Part shown: positions 2,293-19,050 of the stretch, piece by piece
Position numbering within the stretch: position 1 is the first letter of the stretch
Layout: every line of letters starts with the position of its first letter
DNA from: a virus
DNA length: 19,854 nt
UHGV virus genome: UHGV-0075699
Strand: one strand, 5' to 3'
Position numbers and translations under genes: made by a program
Notes under the pieces: model-generated
Database searches by the model: none
What the model was told of the DNA's origin: nothing
The model's input: the letters and a program-made list of their open reading frames with translations, nothing else

Positions 2293-2754
2293 ATGGCAAT
2301 TAATTTACCAGTGTACTTTATGAACAGCAGCGGGGAATTTTCAACTACACCGCAACCAATGGCTGTACCCGTGATAGTTGTCACATTTGCAGCGGTTGAC
2401 AAAGATAATCATTATCAAATACCGAACCCCGAGAAACATGAATCAGCTATGGTTCTGATCGATACTGGTGCTACCGCCTGTTATATCGATAATGATTTTG
2501 CTGATGAATTAGAACTCCCAGTTACCAGCGAAATCCAAGTTCGGGGAGGAACTTCTACAATTAATTCAACAGCTCGCAGGGCGGTTATGAGCCTAACAAA
2601 CGACGGGCGCCTTTTTTCTCAAGAATTTCATGCAACCCCTTTAGTTAATAATGGGCGACACTTCAAAGCAATTCTTGGGATGGAGTTTCTTCAACACTGC
2701 TCATTCACGCTTGACTACAAAAATAACAAATTCGAGTTGTTGTTTAATAGTTAA
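2293..2754 (+). CDS. Retropepsin-like (clan AA) aspartic protease, moron gene
   Basis: Protein contains VLIDTGATACYID (D-T-G-A catalytic motif in hydrophobic context) and a C-terminal AILGMEFL motif resembling the retropepsin I-I-G-R-D-x-L element. AAGGAA RBS 5 nt upstream of ATG. Gene is visibly AT-richer than its flanks and opposite in orientation to the late operon. Confidence 0.65.
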   Translation: MAINLPVYFMNSSGEFSTTPQPMAVPVIVVTFAAVDKDNHYQIPNPEKHESAMVLIDTGATACYIDNDFADELELPVTSEIQVRGGTSTINSTARRAVMSLTNDGRLFSQEFHATPLVNNGRHFKAILGMEFLQHCSFTLDYKNNKFELLFNS

Positions 2755-4364: not shown

Positions 4365-4772
4365 TTACCGGACAATTATTTCCATTTTTTGTCCTAGTAC
4401 CGATAGTGCTTTTTGAATGGTGTCGATCTTGGTGCTATGACCAAGAGACACGATTCGCTGTACCTCCTGAGGGCGCGTATTAATCATGCGGGCCAGTTCA
4501 GCGTTACTGGTATTGGTACTGACCAGGCGGTTTAGCAATAATACCTTCGCCGCCACGCTTGATGGCACTTCAACAAACGCCTCACCCTCTGCTGAAGGTG
4601 CGGGGATCTCCCGGCGGTCGTCAAAATAGAAATCAAACGCCGTAACCAGGGCATCCTGCGCCATTTCTAACGCTTCCTCCCTGGTTGCCCCTCCCGTCAT
4701 TGCCTCGGGGATATCTGGGAAAAATACCGCCCAGCCGGTTTCGTCATGCTCAAAATTTACCGGATATCTCAT
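4365..4772 (-). CDS. hicB: HicB antitoxin
   Basis: From the internal ATG at 4772 the protein reads MRYPVNFEHDETGWAVFFPDIPEAMTGGATREEALEMAQDALVTAFDFYFDD...LSVLGQKMEIIVR, matching the recalled E. coli HicB pattern (MRYPV...FVDIPEA...DAL.TAFDFYFED...). Directly downstream of hicA. Confidence 0.85.
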   Translation of the reverse strand: MRYPVNFEHDETGWAVFFPDIPEAMTGGATREEALEMAQDALVTAFDFYFDDRREIPAPSAEGEAFVEVPSSVAAKVLLLNRLVSTNTSNAELARMINTRPQEVQRIVSLGHSTKIDTIQKALSVLGQKMEIIVR

Positions 4773-4819
4773 ATTGATTAAGTGAATCTCCACGAGTACC
4801 AGCCCCGGAGGGCTGGTTT

Positions 4820-4996
4820 TTATTTGATACCGAGTTGCTTCAAAATTGCTTTTCTCAGCGGCTCCGGGATTTCCTTGCCCGGGTGTCTCGGCATTATCGT
4901 TTGCTTGCCGTTGAGGTAAATTTTTAAGTGGTTGGTACCATCTTTAAACTCTGCCCCTTGAGCTGCAAGCCAACGCCTGAACTCGCTTTGCTTCAC
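4820..4996 (-). CDS. hicA: HicA mRNA-interferase toxin
   Basis: 58-aa ORF (below the ORF-track size cutoff) found by manual translation: VKQSEFRRWLAAQGAEFKDGTNHLKIYLNGKQTIMPRHPGKEIPEPLRKAILKQLGIK, closely matching recalled E. coli HicA (MKQSEFRRWLESQG...NHLKL...MPRHP...EPLRKAILKQLGL). GTG start preceded by AGGAGGAGG. Confidence 0.85.
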   Translation of the reverse strand: MKQSEFRRWLAAQGAEFKDGTNHLKIYLNGKQTIMPRHPGKEIPEPLRKAILKQLGIK

Positions 4997-5225: not shown

Positions 5226-5945
5226 TTAATCACATTTTTCCGTTCTGACCTCTTCTATTTGCTCATGATATGTGTAGATGTTCTGCAATGCGTTGTTATC
5301 CATCTCAATGAAAGCCGTTTTAAGTCGTTCCCAATGCCCGGCATAAACCCTTTTCCAGGTTGAGCGGTCAACTGAAACCATACGCGCCAGAGCTGCGCCA
5401 GCGTAGGTTTTATACGTCTCATTATTCCGGGTCGCTGCAACCTCCTGGCCAGCCAGCCAGACCAGCCCCACAAGCTTTTTTATTACTCTCGATTGGATCG
5501 CCCTGCCTACTTGATAGTTCTGATATTCAGTCCAGACGTGTTCACACATCAGCGTCTGGTAACGGAAATTTAGATCGAAGCCATAGCAATAGCGCACCCA
5601 TGCCTGGTGATGTTCTTCCAGCAGGTTTACAGCGCGCCTCCACGGTGAATAACCGAATTCAATATCATTGATGGGCGGCATTGGCCGGCGGCGGCTGCGG
5701 GTCTCCATCACATAAACTGGAGTAGTCAGTGCCTTAACCACCGACGGGCCACAACCAATCCCCCCTTCCAGATCGACAAGATTGCGAGAGCACCGCGGAT
5801 TTTTATTCTTATCTGCCGGTGGGTTCTCGCTGAATGCCTCGAGTTGTCCCTTTGTTGCGCCGGATAAATCCAACAACGCTCGACGCACTTCAATACGGGT
5901 ATATTCCAGGTTTTGTAGGTTCATACTGCTCAACGCTCCATACAC
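5226..5945 (-). CDS. Probable late antiterminator Q (Qin/82-type Phage_antitermQ-like)
   Basis: 239-aa ORF located exactly where Q sits in lambdoid phages (after the nin-region genes, directly before a promoter-terminator pair and the lysis cassette). Assignment rests mainly on position and size; start could be GTG 5945 or ATG 5924. Confidence 0.5.
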   Translation of the reverse strand: MYGALSSMNLQNLEYTRIEVRRALLDLSGATKGQLEAFSENPPADKNKNPRCSRNLVDLEGGIGCGPSVVKALTTPVYVMETRSRRRPMPPINDIEFGYSPWRRAVNLLEEHHQAWVRYCYGFDLNFRYQTLMCEHVWTEYQNYQVGRAIQSRVIKKLVGLVWLAGQEVAATRNNETYKTYAGAALARMVSVDRSTWKRVYAGHWERLKTAFIEMDNNALQNIYTYHEQIEEVRTEKCD

Positions 5946-7006
5946 TATGCTTTTATAATTGCGCCGATCGCCATAGCTCGATCAAGAAAACGGAACAGCA
6001 GCTCCAACTGCGTGCCATTCTTCTCTTCAAAGGCGTTAACATCGGCATGTAGCTCGTCGTGGCACTCTCTGCACAGAGGAAACACGAAGAGATCGTGGGC
6101 TTTGGTTGCGGTACCGCCCATGCCATGGCCGATGACATGATGCGGATCGTCAGCTGGTCTGCGGCAGCATTCGCATGGTTGATGCTTAACCCAGTCGGTA
6201 TAAGTCTTGCTTACCCAGCGACGGCGCTTTGGCCTGAGCATGAAAGATTCCGGCGATTCCGGATCGGCAGTCAGCGCAAGCCCCTTCGGCTGGTCCTGGT
6301 GCGCCTGGACATTTTCGTTGCGCCTGCATTGCCTTGCTGTGCCTGCAGCTGGCAGTTTCTCCTGCAGAATGCTGGTGGCCGGTAAAGTAGGCCGGATATC
6401 GCTTTCTTTATACACCGACAGGAACGGCTCTTCAGGCAACCCTAGACCACGCTGCGCCATCGTCTCCGTAATGGCATCGGCTATACCTGACTGAACTGCC
6501 CACCAGCACAACTCTGCGATTGAAAGAGAGCGTTCTTTGTTATAACCGAGCCCGATCAGCACAGTATCTATTACCCAGTCGACTACATTACGAAGTGCCA
6601 GCGCCTCGATAGCTGGAGTCGACTGCTCCCGCAGTTTATTGTCACAATGCCAGCACACCAGCAACGCACCAGGCGGATGTCGCATCGTTACCATCTCGTT
6701 ATGGTGGTACTCGGAATGAGGGTACTGGCACCTCTTCAGCCGGAGAAACAGCCACCGTTCAAGCGCTGGCAATCCACCAGCAGCACGAATCACACGCTCA
6801 TCGGAAAAGAATACGTGCAGGCTGGAATCCTCCGCTAAAGGTTGTCGGGCATCAGGGACACGACCAGATGGCAAGCGGGCCATATTTTGTGGTTCAGCCT
6901 CGACTAAAACACGCCCGGCAGAAAACAGGTGCATCAGATCACGGCCGGGCTTAAATAGAACCACGCCGAGGCGTGGCACAATCTCAGGGGTGAGTAACGC
7001 TCTCAT
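5945..7006 (-). CDS. Cys/His-rich nin-region protein, DUF968-like with HNH-like metal-binding C-terminus
   Basis: C-terminal region HQPCECCRRPADDPHHVIGHGMGG...FPLCRECHDELH has paired CxxC and His clusters typical of HNH/zinc-binding nucleases; a second Cys cluster (LLVCWHCDNK) lies mid-protein. Start overlaps the MTase stop. Confidence 0.45.
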   Translation of the reverse strand: MRALLTPEIVPRLGVVLFKPGRDLMHLFSAGRVLVEAEPQNMARLPSGRVPDARQPLAEDSSLHVFFSDERVIRAAGGLPALERWLFLRLKRCQYPHSEYHHNEMVTMRHPPGALLVCWHCDNKLREQSTPAIEALALRNVVDWVIDTVLIGLGYNKERSLSIAELCWWAVQSGIADAITETMAQRGLGLPEEPFLSVYKESDIRPTLPATSILQEKLPAAGTARQCRRNENVQAHQDQPKGLALTADPESPESFMLRPKRRRWVSKTYTDWVKHQPCECCRRPADDPHHVIGHGMGGTATKAHDLFVFPLCRECHDELHADVNAFEEKNGTQLELLFRFLDRAMAIGAIIKA

Positions 7007-8853
7007 GCAACCTCACGCCGACCAGAAACACAAATTTCAGGAAGGTTTGCTCTTACAATCGCCTCAGCAAAGGGCGGCGGCACGGCGTTTCCGCACCTGG
7101 CGACTTGTTTCTCTTTCGAGTACCTCTTGCCGCGGTAGTCACGATCAATGATGTACCAGTCAGGGAATCCCTGAGCGCGGTAAAGTTCATGCGGCTGCAG
7201 CATGCGCATTCCGATATCAACAATGCGGTAAACAATACCCTTAATCGTCACCAGTTCGCTGACGCCAAAAGAATTCAGGAACTCTTTGACCTGATCCGCC
7301 CGGCGCTCGTCGTAATCATTAGCCGCCAGCAGCGCGCGAACCTCTCCAACATGCTGACCTCCAGCGGTGATTGTCGGCATTGGTTCACTGGTGCGCTGGC
7401 CATCGCGGCAGGTACCGCGCAGTTTAACCAGATGAGACGTAACCAGCGCATGGTGATCGACTGTGGTAACTGAGTGTGCAGGATCGTCCAGTCCGACGCC
7501 CGGGCCGGTATAGTTCCCGCCGTAGTGTTTCGCCAAAAACGCAGTTGTTACGGCAAATTTATTGCCACCAGCTACAACTGTTCCCAGCGGTTTACGCAGA
7601 TTTAGAACGCGCGGCGACTGCCCTACACGTTCGCCATACCCCATCTGAATAAGTGTGGCCGCGACAAGCTGTGACTTCCCCCCGCCGCCAGCGGTAATTG
7701 TTGCGCTGGGTTCATCCGCCCGGTGGCCGATGCTGGCGCCGAACTGACGCGCGATAACTGGCGCAACCAGGCAGGAGCGAGACTGTTTAAGGATGGTATG
7801 AGCGGGTTTATTCAATGGCCGCGGTTTCGCCTGGTACTCGCTACCCCCATTACCTGCCAGGAATGGAACCAACGTCGGTAACGCCAGCGCATAACCGTGG
7901 GTTTTGGTGATGGTTTGCAGGGGATCGGCCAGCGACTGTCCGCGGAAGCAATCATATTTACCGCGTGTTGTGGTGTGGTTGCATTTGACGATGAACGGAT
8001 TATCACTTTCGACGACAAACCGCTGGATGCCGCGCGCTATCCGTTTCAACGTGTTAATGGCCAGCGGCTTTTTACGGTCAAATATCGATGGTGCAGGAAT
8101 AGACCAGTCGATACACTCAGCAGCTGTCCGCCATGGTGCCAAATTTCCGGATTTAACTGCTGCGGATTTAGGGTCACCGTGAGTGACTCCCGGCCAGGCA
8201 ATGGGTTTATCGTCACAACGCATCAACATGAAGAATCGCTTGCGGATCGTCGGAGCACCATAATCACTGGCACGCAGTTCGCGATATTCGACCTTATACC
8301 CGAGGCCAGCAATCAGTCGTTTGGCTTGTTTGCCATCCGAGGATATGCCGAGAAATTCGCAACATTCGTACAGAGCCGGGTGATCCGCAGGTATACCAGT
8401 GGAAAGCATTCCAACAAATGCCAGGAAGGTTTCACCAGAACGCTTAGGATCAGGACGCATCTCACATGAAAGCAGCGGGCCCCACGTTTTAAATTCTTCA
8501 ACATTTTCGAGAGCCATTACACGAGGGCGAACATCCAATGCCCAGCGAACAGATACCCAAGCCAGGCCACGAATCTCACGTTTTACCGGTTTACTGCCGC
8601 GCGCCTTTGAATAGTGGGTACAATCCGGGCTGAACCATGCAAACCAGACAGCCTTTCCACCTGTCGCAGCGACAGGGTCAACGTCAAAGACGTTTTCACA
8701 ATAATGAAGCGTGTCCGGGTGATTCGTCCGGTGCATGGCCACGGCGTTTTCGTCGTGGTTAATGGCAATATCAACGCTGCGGCCGATCGCCATTTCTATC
8801 CCGGTAGATGCCCCACCACCGCCAGCAAAATTATCAACAATCAGCTCACGCAT
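7003..8853 (-). CDS. DNA (cytosine-5)-methyltransferase with large variable/target-recognition region
   Basis: Motif I DNFAGGGGAS (AdoMet binding), motif IV SPDCTHYS (catalytic Pro-Cys), motif VI ENV, C-terminal CGNAVPPP (motif X). About 400 aa lie between motif VI and the C-terminal motifs. Confidence 0.85.
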   Translation of the reverse strand: MRELIVDNFAGGGGASTGIEMAIGRSVDIAINHDENAVAMHRTNHPDTLHYCENVFDVDPVAATGGKAVWFAWFSPDCTHYSKARGSKPVKREIRGLAWVSVRWALDVRPRVMALENVEEFKTWGPLLSCEMRPDPKRSGETFLAFVGMLSTGIPADHPALYECCEFLGISSDGKQAKRLIAGLGYKVEYRELRASDYGAPTIRKRFFMLMRCDDKPIAWPGVTHGDPKSAAVKSGNLAPWRTAAECIDWSIPAPSIFDRKKPLAINTLKRIARGIQRFVVESDNPFIVKCNHTTTRGKYDCFRGQSLADPLQTITKTHGYALALPTLVPFLAGNGGSEYQAKPRPLNKPAHTILKQSRSCLVAPVIARQFGASIGHRADEPSATITAGGGGKSQLVAATLIQMGYGERVGQSPRVLNLRKPLGTVVAGGNKFAVTTAFLAKHYGGNYTGPGVGLDDPAHSVTTVDHHALVTSHLVKLRGTCRDGQRTSEPMPTITAGGQHVGEVRALLAANDYDERRADQVKEFLNSFGVSELVTIKGIVYRIVDIGMRMLQPHELYRAQGFPDWYIIDRDYRGKRYSKEKQVARCGNAVPPPFAEAIVRANLPEICVSGRREVA

Positions 8854-9742
8854 GGCTCACCCCCTGCATGCTTTCTACCAGTCCACCAGCAACAGTGATG
8901 ATCTCGCTGGTGGGCATACGCTCCAGCCACAGCTGGTTAATTTGCGCCATCAGCTTGTTTTGCTGGGACGGCTCCAGTCCTTCGGATCCTTCTACCTGTC
9001 GAAACACAAGCCCTACCTCCAGTGGCCAAATACGCGATTCCGTCTCTGGTAATTGCGTAGGCGTTGCGAGTGGTTCTACTGCCGCCGGCTGCGACATTAC
9101 CTGTGCTGGAGTATTGCCAACAGCAAACTGCGCCAGCATCATGAACGCTTGCCCTTTCCTTTCCAGATCCGCACGGTGGATATAGCCGAACCGCTCCCCG
9201 CGCCAGGCCTTATCAAACACGGCAATGGCGCCCGCAAAAAACGCGCTGGTGGGCTTTTGCTTATCATCAGCAGGGACAAACCACGCCGGGAGGTCGAATC
9301 CAATACGACCACGAATAAACATGATGTGATCGGCATCTTCTGGCCACCATGTTTCGCTCGGTGCTGCTTTGATGAGAAATACATAGCGCCCGCCCTTCTC
9401 ACGCTGCGCTGACGCGTAATTCATGATGTGCGTCATGCCAGTTATCGCCTGCTTTTCGTGGTACTGGGAGCGGCTATACGGTGGGTTGCCAAAGCCAGCG
9501 CCGCCAAGTTCTTCCAGACGAGCGGACCAATCTTGCGTCAGCGCGTTGTCTTCGGCGGTGAACCATACCGGGCATTTTGCGTTGCTATCGTCAGCAAACA
9601 GGTCCAGTACCAGCGGTCCAAACATTGCGTTAACGCCCCAGAACAGCAGATCAGGCGTGCGCCACTGATCACCAACGTCTTTCAGAAAATGGGACGGTGC
9701 AGCGCGCATGGCCGCCAGCGATTCACAATATGCATTCGTCAC
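8846..9742 (-). CDS. Phage-type DNA N6-adenine methyltransferase
   Basis: Contains GFGNPPYSRSQ (the NPPY motif of N6-adenine / N4-cytosine amino-MTases) with upstream AdoMet-binding-like segment. 8-nt overlap with the downstream C5-MTase gene. Confidence 0.8.
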   Translation of the reverse strand: MTNAYCESLAAMRAAPSHFLKDVGDQWRTPDLLFWGVNAMFGPLVLDLFADDSNAKCPVWFTAEDNALTQDWSARLEELGGAGFGNPPYSRSQYHEKQAITGMTHIMNYASAQREKGGRYVFLIKAAPSETWWPEDADHIMFIRGRIGFDLPAWFVPADDKQKPTSAFFAGAIAVFDKAWRGERFGYIHRADLERKGQAFMMLAQFAVGNTPAQVMSQPAAVEPLATPTQLPETESRIWPLEVGLVFRQVEGSEGLEPSQQNKLMAQINQLWLERMPTSEIITVAGGLVESMQGVSHA

Positions 9743-12820: not shown

Positions 12821-13495
12821 ATGAAAACAATCCAGGAAATCAGGCGTTTAAACGCCAGAAAGTTGAGAGATGGTGTTGGTGGAAATACTTTTTTTGCCAA
12901 TATGATTGATCGCGAGCCTACTCAAACAAGCCGGTTCATGGGGGACGGCGCGACAAAAAACATCGGCGATGCTATGGCAAGGCACATTGAAAAATGTTTC
13001 GACTTGCCAACTGGGTGGTTAGATCAAGAACACCAAACCACAAACGTGGCAAAGGCCCCTGATGTCTCCGATACAAATAGAAATATCACGATGGTTCCGG
13101 TTATATCCTGGGTACAGGCAGGAGCATGGACCGAAGTTGGTTATGCTGAGGTAGATTTGAATAGTACGGAAAACTATCCCTGTCCTGTCCCTTGTGGCCC
13201 GATGACATACATCCTTCGAGTAATTGGCGACTCCATGATCGATGAGTATCGCCCTGGTGATATGATTTTTGTTGACCCTGAGGTCCCCGCAGTCCATGGC
13301 GATGATGTTATCGCTTTGATGCACGACTCTGGAGAAACAACATTTAAGCGCCTGATTGAAGATGCCGGTAACCGTTATTTAAAAGCTCTTAATTCGAACT
13401 GGCCTGAACCCTATATAAAAATCAACGGTAATTGCTCAATCATTGGAACCGTGATTTTTTCAGGAAAACCAAGAAGATATAGAATAAAAAATTAA
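12821..13495 (+). CDS. CI-type prophage repressor (N-terminal HTH, C-terminal LexA-like S24 peptidase domain)
   Basis: C-terminal domain has the Ser-Lys dyad context (VIGDSM ... TFKRL) of S24 autocleaving repressors; N-terminal region is a small DNA-binding domain; divergent from cro; followed by a strong terminator. Confidence 0.85.
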   Translation: MKTIQEIRRLNARKLRDGVGGNTFFANMIDREPTQTSRFMGDGATKNIGDAMARHIEKCFDLPTGWLDQEHQTTNVAKAPDVSDTNRNITMVPVISWVQAGAWTEVGYAEVDLNSTENYPCPVPCGPMTYILRVIGDSMIDEYRPGDMIFVDPEVPAVHGDDVIALMHDSGETTFKRLIEDAGNRYLKALNSNWPEPYIKINGNCSIIGTVIFSGKPRRYRIKN

Positions 13496-17046: not shown

Positions 17047-17616
17047 GTGAACCATTTAATGATCGACCTCGAAACTATGGGCAATAAGCCTGCTGCGCCA
17101 ATTGTTGCGATCGGCGCTGTATTCTTCGACCCGAAAAACGGTGAGCTGGGAGCCGAGTTCTATGTGGCCGTCGACCTCGCTAGCGCTATGGGTCAGGGGG
17201 CAACTCCTGACGGTGACACAATTCTGTGGTGGCTGAAGCAATCAGCTGAGGCCAGGGCCGCGATTTGTACCGACGACACTCATCACATCGATGAAGCACT
17301 TTATGAACTGAGTGACTTCATCAGTCGCAACTCTGAAAACCCGCGTTATCTGAAGGTCTGGGGCAACGGCGCCAACTTCGATAATGTCATTCTGCGAACT
17401 GCGTATGAACGAGCGGGCCGTATATGCCCATGGCAGTTCTGGAATGATAGCGACGTGCGCACCATGGTGCTGCTTGGTCGCCAGTTGGATTTCGATCCGA
17501 AGCGCGATATGCCGTTCGATGGTGTAGCCCACAATGCGCTGGCTGATGCTCGCCACCAGGTGAAATACGTGTCAGCAATTTGGCAGCGCCTGCTGCATAC
17601 CAGCACCGAAGAATAA
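17047..17616 (+). CDS. DnaQ-like 3'-5' exonuclease (DEDDh family)
   Basis: MIDLETMG (Exo I Asp/Glu), VWGNGANFD (Exo II Asp) and GVAHNALADARH (Exo III His and Asp, DEDDh type) in the expected order and spacing. Confidence 0.75.
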   Translation: MNHLMIDLETMGNKPAAPIVAIGAVFFDPKNGELGAEFYVAVDLASAMGQGATPDGDTILWWLKQSAEARAAICTDDTHHIDEALYELSDFISRNSENPRYLKVWGNGANFDNVILRTAYERAGRICPWQFWNDSDVRTMVLLGRQLDFDPKRDMPFDGVAHNALADARHQVKYVSAIWQRLLHTSTEE

Positions 17617-17659: not shown

Positions 17660-17869
17660 ATGGCAAAACTAATGAAGGCGAGTCAATGGGGCAAACGCGA
17701 ATTTGCCAAAGACTCTATTCCGGATAACCGAACCATTAAACGTTGGGTTGAAAATGGGCTACTCACAGGGAAGATCGTCGACGGTTCTGTTTTCGTCTTC
17801 GAGTCTGAAAAATGGGGAGTCGACTCAATGGTTAATCATACGGTTCGACAGCTAATAAATGAAGGTTGA
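17660..17869 (+). CDS. xis: Excisionase (Xis-like DNA-binding protein)
   Basis: 69-aa protein immediately upstream of and overlapping int; segment NRTIKRWVENGLLTGKIVDGSVFVFES resembles lambda Xis (ETVRRWVRECRIFPPPVKDGREYLFHES). Confidence 0.65.
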   Translation: MAKLMKASQWGKREFAKDSIPDNRTIKRWVENGLLTGKIVDGSVFVFESEKWGVDSMVNHTVRQLINEG

Positions 17870-17871
17870 CC

Positions 17872-19050
17872 ATGGCAGCCAGACCAAGAAAAAGAGAATA
17901 TCGCCACCTTCCAGAATATCTTTTATTTGATAAAGATCGCGGTGTTTATAAATTTACTCTTATAACAGGAAAGAAAAAGAACCTTGGTAAAGATCGAGCT
18001 ATGGCGATTGCTGTAGCTCGCGAATACAACCTAAGAATGAGACCATTAAACGTACCATCTGTTGATGTATTAATTAGGGAATCAGGTGGTATCGCTGGTG
18101 AGGCCAAACCATTTGCTGAATATGTAGACCATATTATGAACCGAGCAATTGAGAATGAGCGGCCATCACAAAATACCCTCGACGATTGGAATAATGATGC
18201 CATTCGTGTGAAAGAATTTTTTATCAATATTCCCGCTTGCGATATTGAACTGGAGCATGTAAACGCCTACATAAACCATTATCATGCTGAAGCTTCAGCA
18301 AACGTACAGAATAGGAAAGTCAGCTTCCTTAAAAAACTTTTCTCCTATGCGGTCGATGAATCATTAATGTTTGATAACCCGGCCACACGTAAAAAGATGC
18401 GCAGGACTGAGGAGAAGAAACGGCAGCGCCTGTCACTCGAACACTTTAAAGCCATCAGACGCGCCGCCGAGCCATGGCTACGGACTGCGATGGATTTAGC
18501 ATTGCAGACGACGCATGCGCGCCTTGAGGTGTCACGAATCCGATATTCAATCAGTGAGCCAAAAGATGGCGTCTGCGGGTGTGTATGGCTTGCACAGCCG
18601 GAAAACGGGATTTATGGCACGCTGTACATTCACCGCCAGAAAGTACAGAAGAAAGAGGCCTCGCATGTCGCAATCCCGATCGGGGAAGAGTTGAAGCGGA
18701 TTATTGACGAAAGCCGCGATAATGTAGCCAGCCCGTTTATCGTTCACCGGATTCCAGATAGGCAGGTTAAGCGTAGTAAAGAAGTTTCACACCCAACACA
18801 GGTTGCGCCGGACTATCTGAGCCGGTCCTTTTCAGCGGTGCGCGACAAACTTGGCTTATGCGACAAACTGGCGATGGACGAAAGACCAACCTTTCACGAA
18901 ATTCGAGCGCTGGCCGCCCATCTTTTTGATCAGCAAGGTATCGATCCGCAAGGACGAATGGCGCACAGTGATGCGAAGTCGACCAAGATTTACACGCAAA
19001 ACCATATCGATTGGGTTGTCGTTCCACATGGTGAAATTAAAGCCGGATAA
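17872..19050 (+). CDS. int: Tyrosine integrase (lambda Int family)
   Basis: C-terminal catalytic region contains PTFHEIRALAAHLF (H-x-x-R box, compare lambda PTFHELRSLSARLY) and the tyrosine-containing STKIYTQNH; arm-binding-type basic N-terminus. Start placed at ATG 17872 (GAAGG RBS); ORF track begins at TTG 17866. Lies next to the tRNA-derived att core. Confidence 0.9.
   Translation: MAARPRKREYRHLPEYLLFDKDRGVYKFTLITGKKKNLGKDRAMAIAVAREYNLRMRPLNVPSVDVLIRESGGIAGEAKPFAEYVDHIMNRAIENERPSQNTLDDWNNDAIRVKEFFINIPACDIELEHVNAYINHYHAEASANVQNRKVSFLKKLFSYAVDESLMFDNPATRKKMRRTEEKKRQRLSLEHFKAIRRAAEPWLRTAMDLALQTTHARLEVSRIRYSISEPKDGVCGCVWLAQPENGIYGTLYIHRQKVQKKEASHVAIPIGEELKRIIDESRDNVASPFIVHRIPDRQVKRSKEVSHPTQVAPDYLSRSFSAVRDKLGLCDKLAMDERPTFHEIRALAAHLFDQQGIDPQGRMAHSDAKSTKIYTQNHIDWVVVPHGEIKAG

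Follow-up and report, generated by a model that had tools for sequence, protein, structure and literature searches.

The window analyzed here is the whole of a 19,854-bp human-gut metagenome contig (UHGV-0075699; ENA ERZ1745588 NODE_363), which holds part of a lambdoid temperate phage genome, namely its immunity, early and lysis regions. Two DNA methyltransferase (MTase) genes are found in tandem on its minus strand: the first (positions 8846–9742) encodes an N6-adenine DNA MTase of 298 amino acids (aa), and the second (7003–8853) encodes a C5-cytosine DNA MTase of 616 aa. An earlier note on this DNA had described the C5 enzyme as 616 aa long and the two open reading frames (ORFs) as overlapping by 8 nt, and its positions proved to be right. 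The overlap (ATGCGTGA, 8846–8853, minus strand) joins the stop codon of the adenine MTase gene to the start codon of the C5 MTase gene and points to translational coupling. The ATG of the latter is preceded by the Shine-Dalgarno sequence GGGGGTGAG, which lies within the adenine MTase gene. The coupling extends over the whole MTase block: the GTG start codon of the adenine MTase gene, with AGGAGG upstream, overlaps the stop codon of the preceding ORF as GTGA, and the stop codon of the C5 MTase gene overlaps the ATG of the following gene, which encodes a DUF968/HNH protein, by 4 nt as ATGA.

Assignment of the second gene product to the C5 MTases is based on its match to Pfam PF00145, on the presence of the C5 MTase motifs and on the modelled fold of the core. 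The PF00145 match (76 bits; cut-off, 22) is divided into three stretches by a long variable region, and the score against NCBIfam TIGR00675 (56 bits) lies under the cut-off of 100.65. A protein 100% identical to the C5 MTase is present in public data (P0001). The conserved motifs comprise motif I (FAGGGG, aa 9–14), motif IV (SPDC, aa 75–78, with the putative catalytic Cys78; 8620–8631, minus strand), motif VI (ENV, aa 116–118; 8500–8508, minus strand), motif VIII (TIRKR, aa 202–206; 8236–8250, minus strand), which aligns with PDB entry 3g7u, motif IX (RMLQPHELYRAQGFP, aa 550–564; 7162–7206, minus strand) and motif X (GNAVPP, aa 588–593; 7075–7092, minus strand). The earlier note had raised the possibility of disrupted catalytic motifs; motifs I, IV, VI, VIII, IX and X are intact and do not vary among 42 homologs, the most distant of them 44% identical. 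The invariant residues include E116, N117 and V118 in motif VI, T202, R204 and R206 in motif VIII, and G588, N589 and V591 in motif X. Motif IV reads P-D-C, with one residue between Pro and Cys, versus the canonical P-C. This variant is family-wide, its surroundings (S75, P76, C78, S82, A84, G86) are invariant in the same 42 homologs, and the PF00145 alignment spans the motif. In the AlphaFold model built from a diverse alignment, the predicted local distance difference test (pLDDT) score of the catalytic core exceeds 85, and Foldseek analysis of the modelled core returned M.HhaI and M.HaeIII (target-normalised template modelling scores, 0.64 and 0.60, respectively), as well as DNMT1/MET1 and 3g7u.

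The distance between ENV and the C-terminal motifs had been estimated at about 400 aa. It is indeed 432 aa to motif IX, but motif VIII had been missed, and the variable region proper, from motif VIII to motif IX, comprises approximately 343 aa; a helical insert is found between motifs VI and VIII. Within the variable region, six tandem modules resembling target-recognition domains (TRDs) occupy aa 305–517 (7303–7941, minus strand), as delineated by a hidden Markov model (HMM) of distant homologs, pairwise z-scores and whole-module insertions and deletions. These are, all on the minus strand, M1 (aa 305–338, 7840–7941; GQSLADPLQTITK--THGYALALPTLVPFLAGNGGS), M2 (aa 344–377, 7723–7824; PRPLNKPAHTILK--QSRSCLVAPVIARQFGASIGH), M3 (aa 376–409, 7627–7728; GHRADEPSATITAGGGGKSQLVAATLIQMGYGER), M4 (aa 418–448, 7510–7602; VLNLRKPLGTVVAG-GNKFAVTTAFLAKHYGGNY), M5 (aa 452–485, 7399–7500; GVGLDDPAHSVTT--VDHHALVTSHLVKLRGTCRDG) and M6 (aa 485–517, 7303–7401; GQRTSEPMPTITAG-GQHVGEVRALLAANDYDER). 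In each module of about 34 aa, a loop joins a P-x-x-T-[IV]-x core to a second strand, a strand–loop–strand pattern that appears to represent the hallmark element of C5 MTase TRDs, and the modules may accordingly be pictured as hairpins.

Pairwise local scores between the modules reach z = 10 relative to shuffles. Iteration of the module HMM over 271 family proteins yielded the consensus GQPLDEPLPTVTAGNHHALVAAFLVKYYGGSVGS, and an HMM built from distant homologs only gave 22–44 bits for each module of the window protein, with no hit at i-E ≤ 0.01 in any of 274 shuffled proteins. The repeats were seen only by anchored pairwise scoring and profile HMMs; self-BLASTP of the C5 protein produced no off-diagonal matches. 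Tandem Repeats Finder also detected nothing at the DNA level over 7003–8853; the module repeat is ancient and visible at the protein level only. The six modules are all constrained to about the same degree as the catalytic core (entropy, 0.41); M6 and M1 are the least conserved (0.56 and 0.54, respectively), and values for M2–M5 range from 0.20 to 0.43. Among orthologous modules, the loop following T-x-T is the most conserved part (0.21), and the same loops are the parts that differ most among the six paralogous modules. The mean pLDDT of the AlphaFold models was 43.5 with a shallow alignment and 62.1 with the diverse one; the first model, of low confidence, has a strand-turn-strand in M1–M5 and a single strand in M6.

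For comparison, the genes of three multispecific C5 MTases of Bacillus phages were used (M.SPRI, K02124; M.Rho11sI, X05242; M.H2I, M72412), with TRD boundaries that we take to be the accepted ones. The variable regions of SPR, rho11s and H2 contain three to four elements similar to the modules (e.g., GLSPTITTNKGEGLKIAVEY, GVSPTLTTMGEGHREPKIAVEY and EPAFTVNTIDRHGVAVGEY), the last of them located some 20 aa ahead of motif IX. In 57 members of the window family, the last HMM-detected module lies 20–29 aa before motif IX, which is the canonical TRD position; in the window protein, insertion of the helix DYDERRADQVKEFLNSFG widens the gap between M6 and motif IX to 56 aa. An HMM of the terminal segment together with motif IX is collinear with the C-terminal TRD and motif IX of SPR, rho11s and H2, as exemplified by the alignment of ePlhTvttkdrfGLVtveGeeY...RmLePrEL with SPR residues 354–393, EPAFTVNTIDRHGVAVGEYPKYRI-RRLTPLEC. 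Spacing to motif IX and this collinearity make the terminal module the counterpart, in position and in motif, of a genuine TRD core; the modules upstream of it are its paralogs.

The earlier note considered the variable region to be unusually long. It is long relative to classical C5 MTases but normal within the large phage family to which the enzyme belongs, of which a long variable region is the norm and not a peculiarity of the window gene. The variable region alone retrieved 3160 clusters at 50% identity (570 with E ≤ 1e-30), and for the full C5 protein there are over 8000 close relatives in prophages of Klebsiella, Raoultella, Salmonella, Citrobacter and Kluyvera, all named plainly "DNA cytosine methyltransferase". 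Members of the family are also carried by 247 sequenced phages, the hosts of which include Gordonia, Pseudomonas, Mycobacterium, Vibrio and Aeromonas, among others. The number of modules per protein varies from 4 to 12, the module start-to-start spacing is mostly 31–42 aa, and the protein length follows the number of modules (length = 389 + 36.7 × n aa; r = 0.83, n = 215).

The architectures of 121 proteins, namely the 120 closest homologs (71–100% identical) and the window protein itself, were typed against reference modules, the typing being confined to these close homologs. Seven architectures were distinguished: 123456 (75 proteins, including that of the window), 1a23456, 12345y6, 1234?y6, 1a2345y6, 1a2345x6 and 1235x6. 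They differ by the presence or absence of modules at three slots, with the alternative cassettes x or y at one of them. Every insertion or deletion is in register, running from mid-hairpin to mid-hairpin and leaving a valid module behind, and in homologs 71–91% identical to the window protein whole modules are gained or lost without a compensating change in their neighbours. Single-linkage clustering of the modules chained nearly all of them together and gave no discrete types. The remark that a region of this size recalls multispecific phage MTases has thereby gained substance, as the region resolves into six tandem TRD-like modules that act as cassettes among close homologs.

Fusions of an N6-adenine MTase domain to the C5 enzyme were expected in long family members; the scanned members of 940–1113 aa (P0125, P0157, P0185, P0232, P0172, P0178, P0237 and P0212) carry inteins instead. 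The inteins are of the Hint_2 or Intein_splicing type, some with a LAGLIDADG homing endonuclease, and start at about residue 78–103, at or beside motif IV. Neither an intein nor an N6-adenine MTase domain was seen in the scan of the longest member (P0214, 1206 aa), and the C5 protein of the window is without an intein.

The adenine MTase has a Dam-family catalytic domain at aa ~17–199, followed by a C-terminal partner domain. Its recognition as an NPPY-type N6-adenine MTase was borne out: the NPPY catalytic motif (motif IV), read from the translation, is located at aa 86–89 (9476–9487, minus strand) and aligns with the NPPY of T1 Dam; the scores against Pfam Dam PF05869 (141.8 bits; cut-off, 28.1) and the NCBIfam phage_N6A_met equivalog TIGR01712 (186.7 bits; cut-off, 97.05) are above the cut-offs, and the PADLOC profile MTase_II PDLC03332 covers the protein over its full length (1.6e-157). 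The enzyme is 25% identical to T1 Dam (M.EcoT1Dam) over 149 aa (E-value, 2e-10) and has the W-x-TP, LD-x-x-A and NPPYS motifs in common with it, but differs by an extra C-terminal extension of about 100 aa that ends in the partner domain of the C5 enzyme. M.EcoT1Dam methylates GATC (PMC4996451). A prophage relative with 35% identity, M.Btr190III, has the same target, shows marked off-target activity besides and is apparently silent in its host (PMC4996451). Owing to the equivalog membership and the distant kinship to T1 Dam, GATC or a relaxed GATC-like sequence may be taken, with low confidence, as the default expectation for the target; the specificities of the pair had been called unknown, which for the type of the adenine MTase is no longer wholly the case. 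Sequence comparisons support the view that both genes encode intact MTases with conserved catalytic motifs.

The C-terminal domain of the adenine MTase is a small domain of approximately 65–70 aa (aa ~229–298; 8849–9058, minus strand) with the sequence ETESRIWPLEVGLVFRQVEGSEGLEPSQQNKLMAQINQLWLERMPTSEIITVAGGLVESMQGVSHA, matched by a small-domain HMM (1.6e-28) and, at aa 234–292, by phrog_16025. Its distribution was surveyed in the flanks of 80 IMG/VR loci with C5 enzymes 67–91% identical to that of the window, which were searched using pieces of the window genes. All of the 80 loci contain a homolog of the small domain, whose end invariably coincides with the C5 start codon or lies shortly before it, whereas a Dam catalytic domain is found upstream of the C5 gene in only 31. 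Thus, what constantly accompanies the C5 enzyme is the small domain and not the adenine MTase. It occurs in three forms: as a free protein of 85–91 aa; behind a Dam domain, in proteins of 298 aa, as in the window, or of 440–460 aa with an insert; and behind an unrelated MTase of about 250 aa with an FDPPH motif, the form that also constitutes the 251-aa gene upstream of a 690-aa Salmonella C5 homolog. In all of the nine Klebsiella and Enterobacter contexts, the free 85-aa gene directly precedes a C5 MTase of 621–680 aa. The overlap with the C5 start is 4 nt in eight of them; in the ninth (L099), the C5 gene is called from a start 63 nt downstream. No adenine MTase was called near the free gene in these nine contexts.

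The small domain has 1078 relatives at E ≤ 1e-3; those named among the top 120 are almost all "hypothetical protein", and searches of Pfam and PDB gave no match. The label of phrog_16025, "DNA methyltransferase", was apparently assigned by association. The domain was not found fused to any C5 protein in the set examined. It is specific to the enterobacterial clade: the region upstream of the C5 gene showed no such domain in distant family members from phages of Aeromonas, Pseudomonas, Ruegeria and Vibrio. Based on the strict adjacency, the translational coupling and the fusion to two different MTases, it is probably a dedicated partner of the C5 enzyme, acting as a docking or accessory subunit, and may interact with it physically.

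Several further arrangements were observed in these neighbourhoods. In the 440–460-aa class (L011, 2626–4008, and similar), the insert between the Dam domain and the small domain is of about 160 aa. The multi-module C5 MTase is repeatedly found beside adenine MTases of unrelated families. Salmonella prophages (L006–L009) have an additional MT-A70 (PF05063) adenine MTase two genes upstream of the C5 gene; in Pseudomonas phage phiC725A (L092), a "DNA adenine methyltransferase" gene overlaps the C5 gene downstream, and a DndC-like PAPS reductase gene lies upstream of it. In ST64B-type phages, a PAPS-reductase domain is fused to a Dam domain (phrog_33262).

Taken as a whole, the locus is best explained as a DNA-modification cassette of a temperate lambdoid phage. 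The reading to which we lean, if only modestly, is that of an orphan cassette in which the C5 enzyme would use several modules with one core to pre-methylate DNA at several targets, with the adenine MTase tethered to it. The first gene would contribute a Dam-family N6-adenine MTase with a GATC or GATC-like target, and the second a predicted active C5 MTase with a single catalytic core and six tandem modules of about 34 aa, each of them putatively paralogous to the hairpin of the C5 TRD core, in which a P-x-x-T-[ILV] strand is followed by a loop and another strand. Each module would pair with the shared catalytic domain and read a different short target, most probably by the mechanism known from SPR, phi3T, rho11s and H2, so that one polypeptide would methylate several sequences and progeny DNA would be pre-protected against many restriction enzymes sensitive to 5-methylcytosine (5mC). 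Fused as it is in the window, the small domain would serve to hold the adenine MTase to the C5 enzyme. Both the assignment of one target per module and the anti-restriction role are suggested by analogy.

Several observations weigh against this proposal. Homology to proven TRDs rests on the short core motif and on position: the module HMM gave no significant match to the TRDs of SPR, rho11s and H2, the only collinear alignment with these enzymes scores 10.6 bits against a database of three sequences, and the module profile had no match in PDB at E ≤ 10. Domain prediction of the variable region, proposed in the earlier note, delivered six sequence modules by HMM, but AlphaFold left the array unresolved: in both runs, C5 residues 288–483 have pLDDT below 50, and neither a hairpin fold nor an independence of the modules finds structural support. 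To our knowledge, no enzyme with the P-D-C variant of motif IV has been characterised, and the literature search returned no methylation data for any member of the C5 family. Dense 5mC would, moreover, expose the phage to McrBC-type restriction, and a net anti-restriction benefit is an assumption. Finally, in-register variation of copy number is equally expected of a solenoid-type repeat domain, and the six modules might fold as one repeat-type TRD, a stack of β-hairpins or a solenoid, that recognises one target or a small set of related, degenerate ones, the copy number tuning affinity, footprint or degeneracy. Such a structure would agree with modules that form one sequence family without discrete types, that have hydrophobic second strands in need of a packing partner, that are inserted and deleted always in register, as in solenoid repeat proteins, and none of which shows detectable homology to a TRD whose specificity is known. 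This, the main alternative, is nevertheless regarded as rather unlikely, as it sits poorly with the gain and loss of whole modules at 71–91% identity beside unchanged neighbours, with two different cassettes filling the same slot, with loops conserved within orthologous modules and divergent between paralogous ones, and with a terminal module placed where relatives and the Bacillus enzymes have a complete and sufficient TRD core. The position of M6, the equivalent of the canonical TRD, could also mean that only this module, the nearest to motif IX, works as a TRD, while the upstream ones are pseudo-TRDs or spacers that arose by duplication, leaving the enzyme effectively monospecific; inactive pseudo-TRDs have been reported in Bacillus enzymes. 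We judge this to be improbable: M1–M5 are as conserved as the catalytic core, with the loops as their most conserved positions, arrays of 4–12 modules are kept in thousands of clusters, and M6 is, together with M1, the least conserved module.

The remaining alternative concerns the orphan status of the MTases. The earlier note held that no cognate restriction endonuclease is present, and this stands: no restriction endonuclease family was matched by any ORF in the 19.9-kb contig in Pfam, PADLOC and other scans. The gene downstream of the C5 MTase (5945–7006, minus strand) encodes a DUF968 protein with an HNH-like C-terminus, which matches phrog_96 "HNH endonuclease", and could in principle make the two MTases part of a phage restriction-modification or exclusion module. 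The 4-nt overlap of its start with the C5 stop codon and its co-occurrence in 34 of the 80 related loci are in line with such a module, but the gene is missing from the other 46 and likewise from Salmonella, Klebsiella and Enterobacter contexts in which the pair of small domain and C5 enzyme is intact, and it has no PADLOC match. DUF968 genes are, besides, common in the nin region of lambdoid prophages that are without MTases. A restriction-modification system with the DUF968/HNH protein as its nuclease was dropped, the linkage not being conserved, and a module of this kind is deemed highly improbable; as it is present in only 34 of the 80 loci, DUF968 is probably an independent nin-region gene.

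The position of the two genes is typical of an early-right operon. In the order of transcription on the minus strand, genes for a CII-like protein, a Rha/KilAC antirepressor, an HTH_36/Phg_2220_C replication protein and an 85-aa ORF precede the two MTases, which are followed by DUF968/HNH, the Q antiterminator, HicA/HicB, holin, lysozyme, Rz and Nu1. Because of their placement between the replication genes and the Q antiterminator, the MTases should be silent or repressed in the lysogen, with expression setting in during lytic growth. The HicA/HicB toxin–antitoxin pair (4365–4996, minus strand) is situated between the Q antiterminator and the holin, lysozyme and Rz genes, a typical moron position. 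An ORF for a retroviral-type aspartyl protease of 153 aa (2293–2754, plus strand; PF13975/PF13650) is oriented against its neighbours and matches the PADLOC candidate defence family PDC-M08B (E-value, 1.2e-6). The plus strand also harbors the gene for a CI-like S24 repressor (12821–13495), a DUF2303 gene, the gene for an Rv2179c-like 3'-5' exoribonuclease (17047–17616; PF16473, 3.4e-74) and, just downstream of the latter, the integrase gene (17866–19050). The CI-like repressor is 224 aa long from the first ATG; it is 197 aa in the public call for the same contig and 224 aa in a second metagenome contig, and the placement of its start codon is uncertain.

Both MTase genes can be recognised as belonging to known enzyme families, and thousands of genomes carry the corresponding annotations. 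Multispecific C5 MTases are a textbook anti-restriction strategy. The tandem-module anatomy, the cassette polymorphism and the obligatory small partner domain were not found in the literature searched, the coverage of which was incomplete and did not include REBASE. It is conceivable, although at somewhat less than even likelihood, that the C5 class of 3160 clusters, found in phages of Proteobacteria, Actinobacteria and others, consists of natural plug-and-play multispecific enzymes with 4–12 exchangeable cassettes of about 34 aa, each with its own target, and that the enterobacterial clade adds a hitherto unrecognised partner of approximately 65–85 aa able to recruit an adenine MTase. If so, the multispecific principle would be extended far beyond a few cases in Bacillus phages. 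Should every module define one target, temperate phages of Enterobacteriaceae, among them prophages of Klebsiella, Salmonella, Citrobacter and Enterobacter, would commonly rely on arrays of recognition cassettes. Such prophages are relevant to host range in phage therapy, to horizontal gene transfer and to the way in which 5mC methylomes are interpreted. The natural cassette variants provide a ready series of deletions and swaps for mapping the ~34-aa modules to targets, which could aid the engineering of C5 specificity. The small domain, now "hypothetical" or mislabelled "DNA methyltransferase" in public records, is suggested by its strict linkage to the C5 enzyme to have a specific role.

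The closest known parallel to the C5 MTase is offered by the multispecific enzymes of Bacillus phages, a group to which M.Phi3TI also belongs. These are likewise phage-borne orphans, with one catalytic core and tandem elements between motifs VIII and IX, and in these elements, as in the modules of the window protein, a (P/S/A)-x-T-[LIV] core leads into a loop and then a strand. The T[LIV] cores are 30–48 aa apart in SPR and rho11s, compared with 31–42 aa in the window family. Whole-cassette differences between near-identical enzymes are a feature of both groups; according to Trautner and co-workers, the Bacillus enzymes reportedly differ by whole TRD cassettes. On the other hand, SPR and rho11s have three to four T[LIV] cores, while there are six modules in the window protein and up to 12 in its family; motif IV is SPCQ in the Bacillus enzymes and SPDC in the window C5 enzyme, and the latter is set apart by the additional helical insert between motifs VI and VIII, the dedicated small partner domain and Gram-negative hosts. 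Moreover, multispecificity is proven for the Bacillus enzymes, whereas the window enzyme is known from its sequence. As no homology is detectable beyond the core motif and position, the C5 MTase may be said to work like the Bacillus group but not to be a member of it. A 2025 EcoSal review attributes multispecific C5 MTases and arrayed TRDs only to temperate phages of Bacillus (PMC12707154). The literature search likewise returned no description of the window C5 family or of multi-TRD MTases outside Bacillus.

Among proteins of known structure, the best sequence match of the C5 MTase (E-value, 5.4e-9) is 3g7u, a putative MTase of prophage CP-933R, with which it has motifs I, VIII and IX/X in common. 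Like the window enzyme, 3g7u is a prophage orphan C5 MTase, but it comprises 376 aa and is without a module array or a counterpart of the variable region. Phage P1 encodes Dmt, a reported fused N6-adenine/C5-cytosine MTase. As in the window, adenine and cytosine methylation are coupled there in one phage-encoded unit; the window locus differs in having two polypeptides encoded by overlapping genes, and the link between them would be a small docking-like domain and not a covalent fusion. Prophage MTases of the M.EcoGII type are orphan enzymes that are silent in the lysogen and give exported DNA broad protection against many restriction systems (PMC12707154). The logic proposed for the window locus is the same, but M.EcoGII is a non-specific adenine MTase, whereas in the window the breadth of protection would come from recognition modules arrayed on the C5 enzyme.

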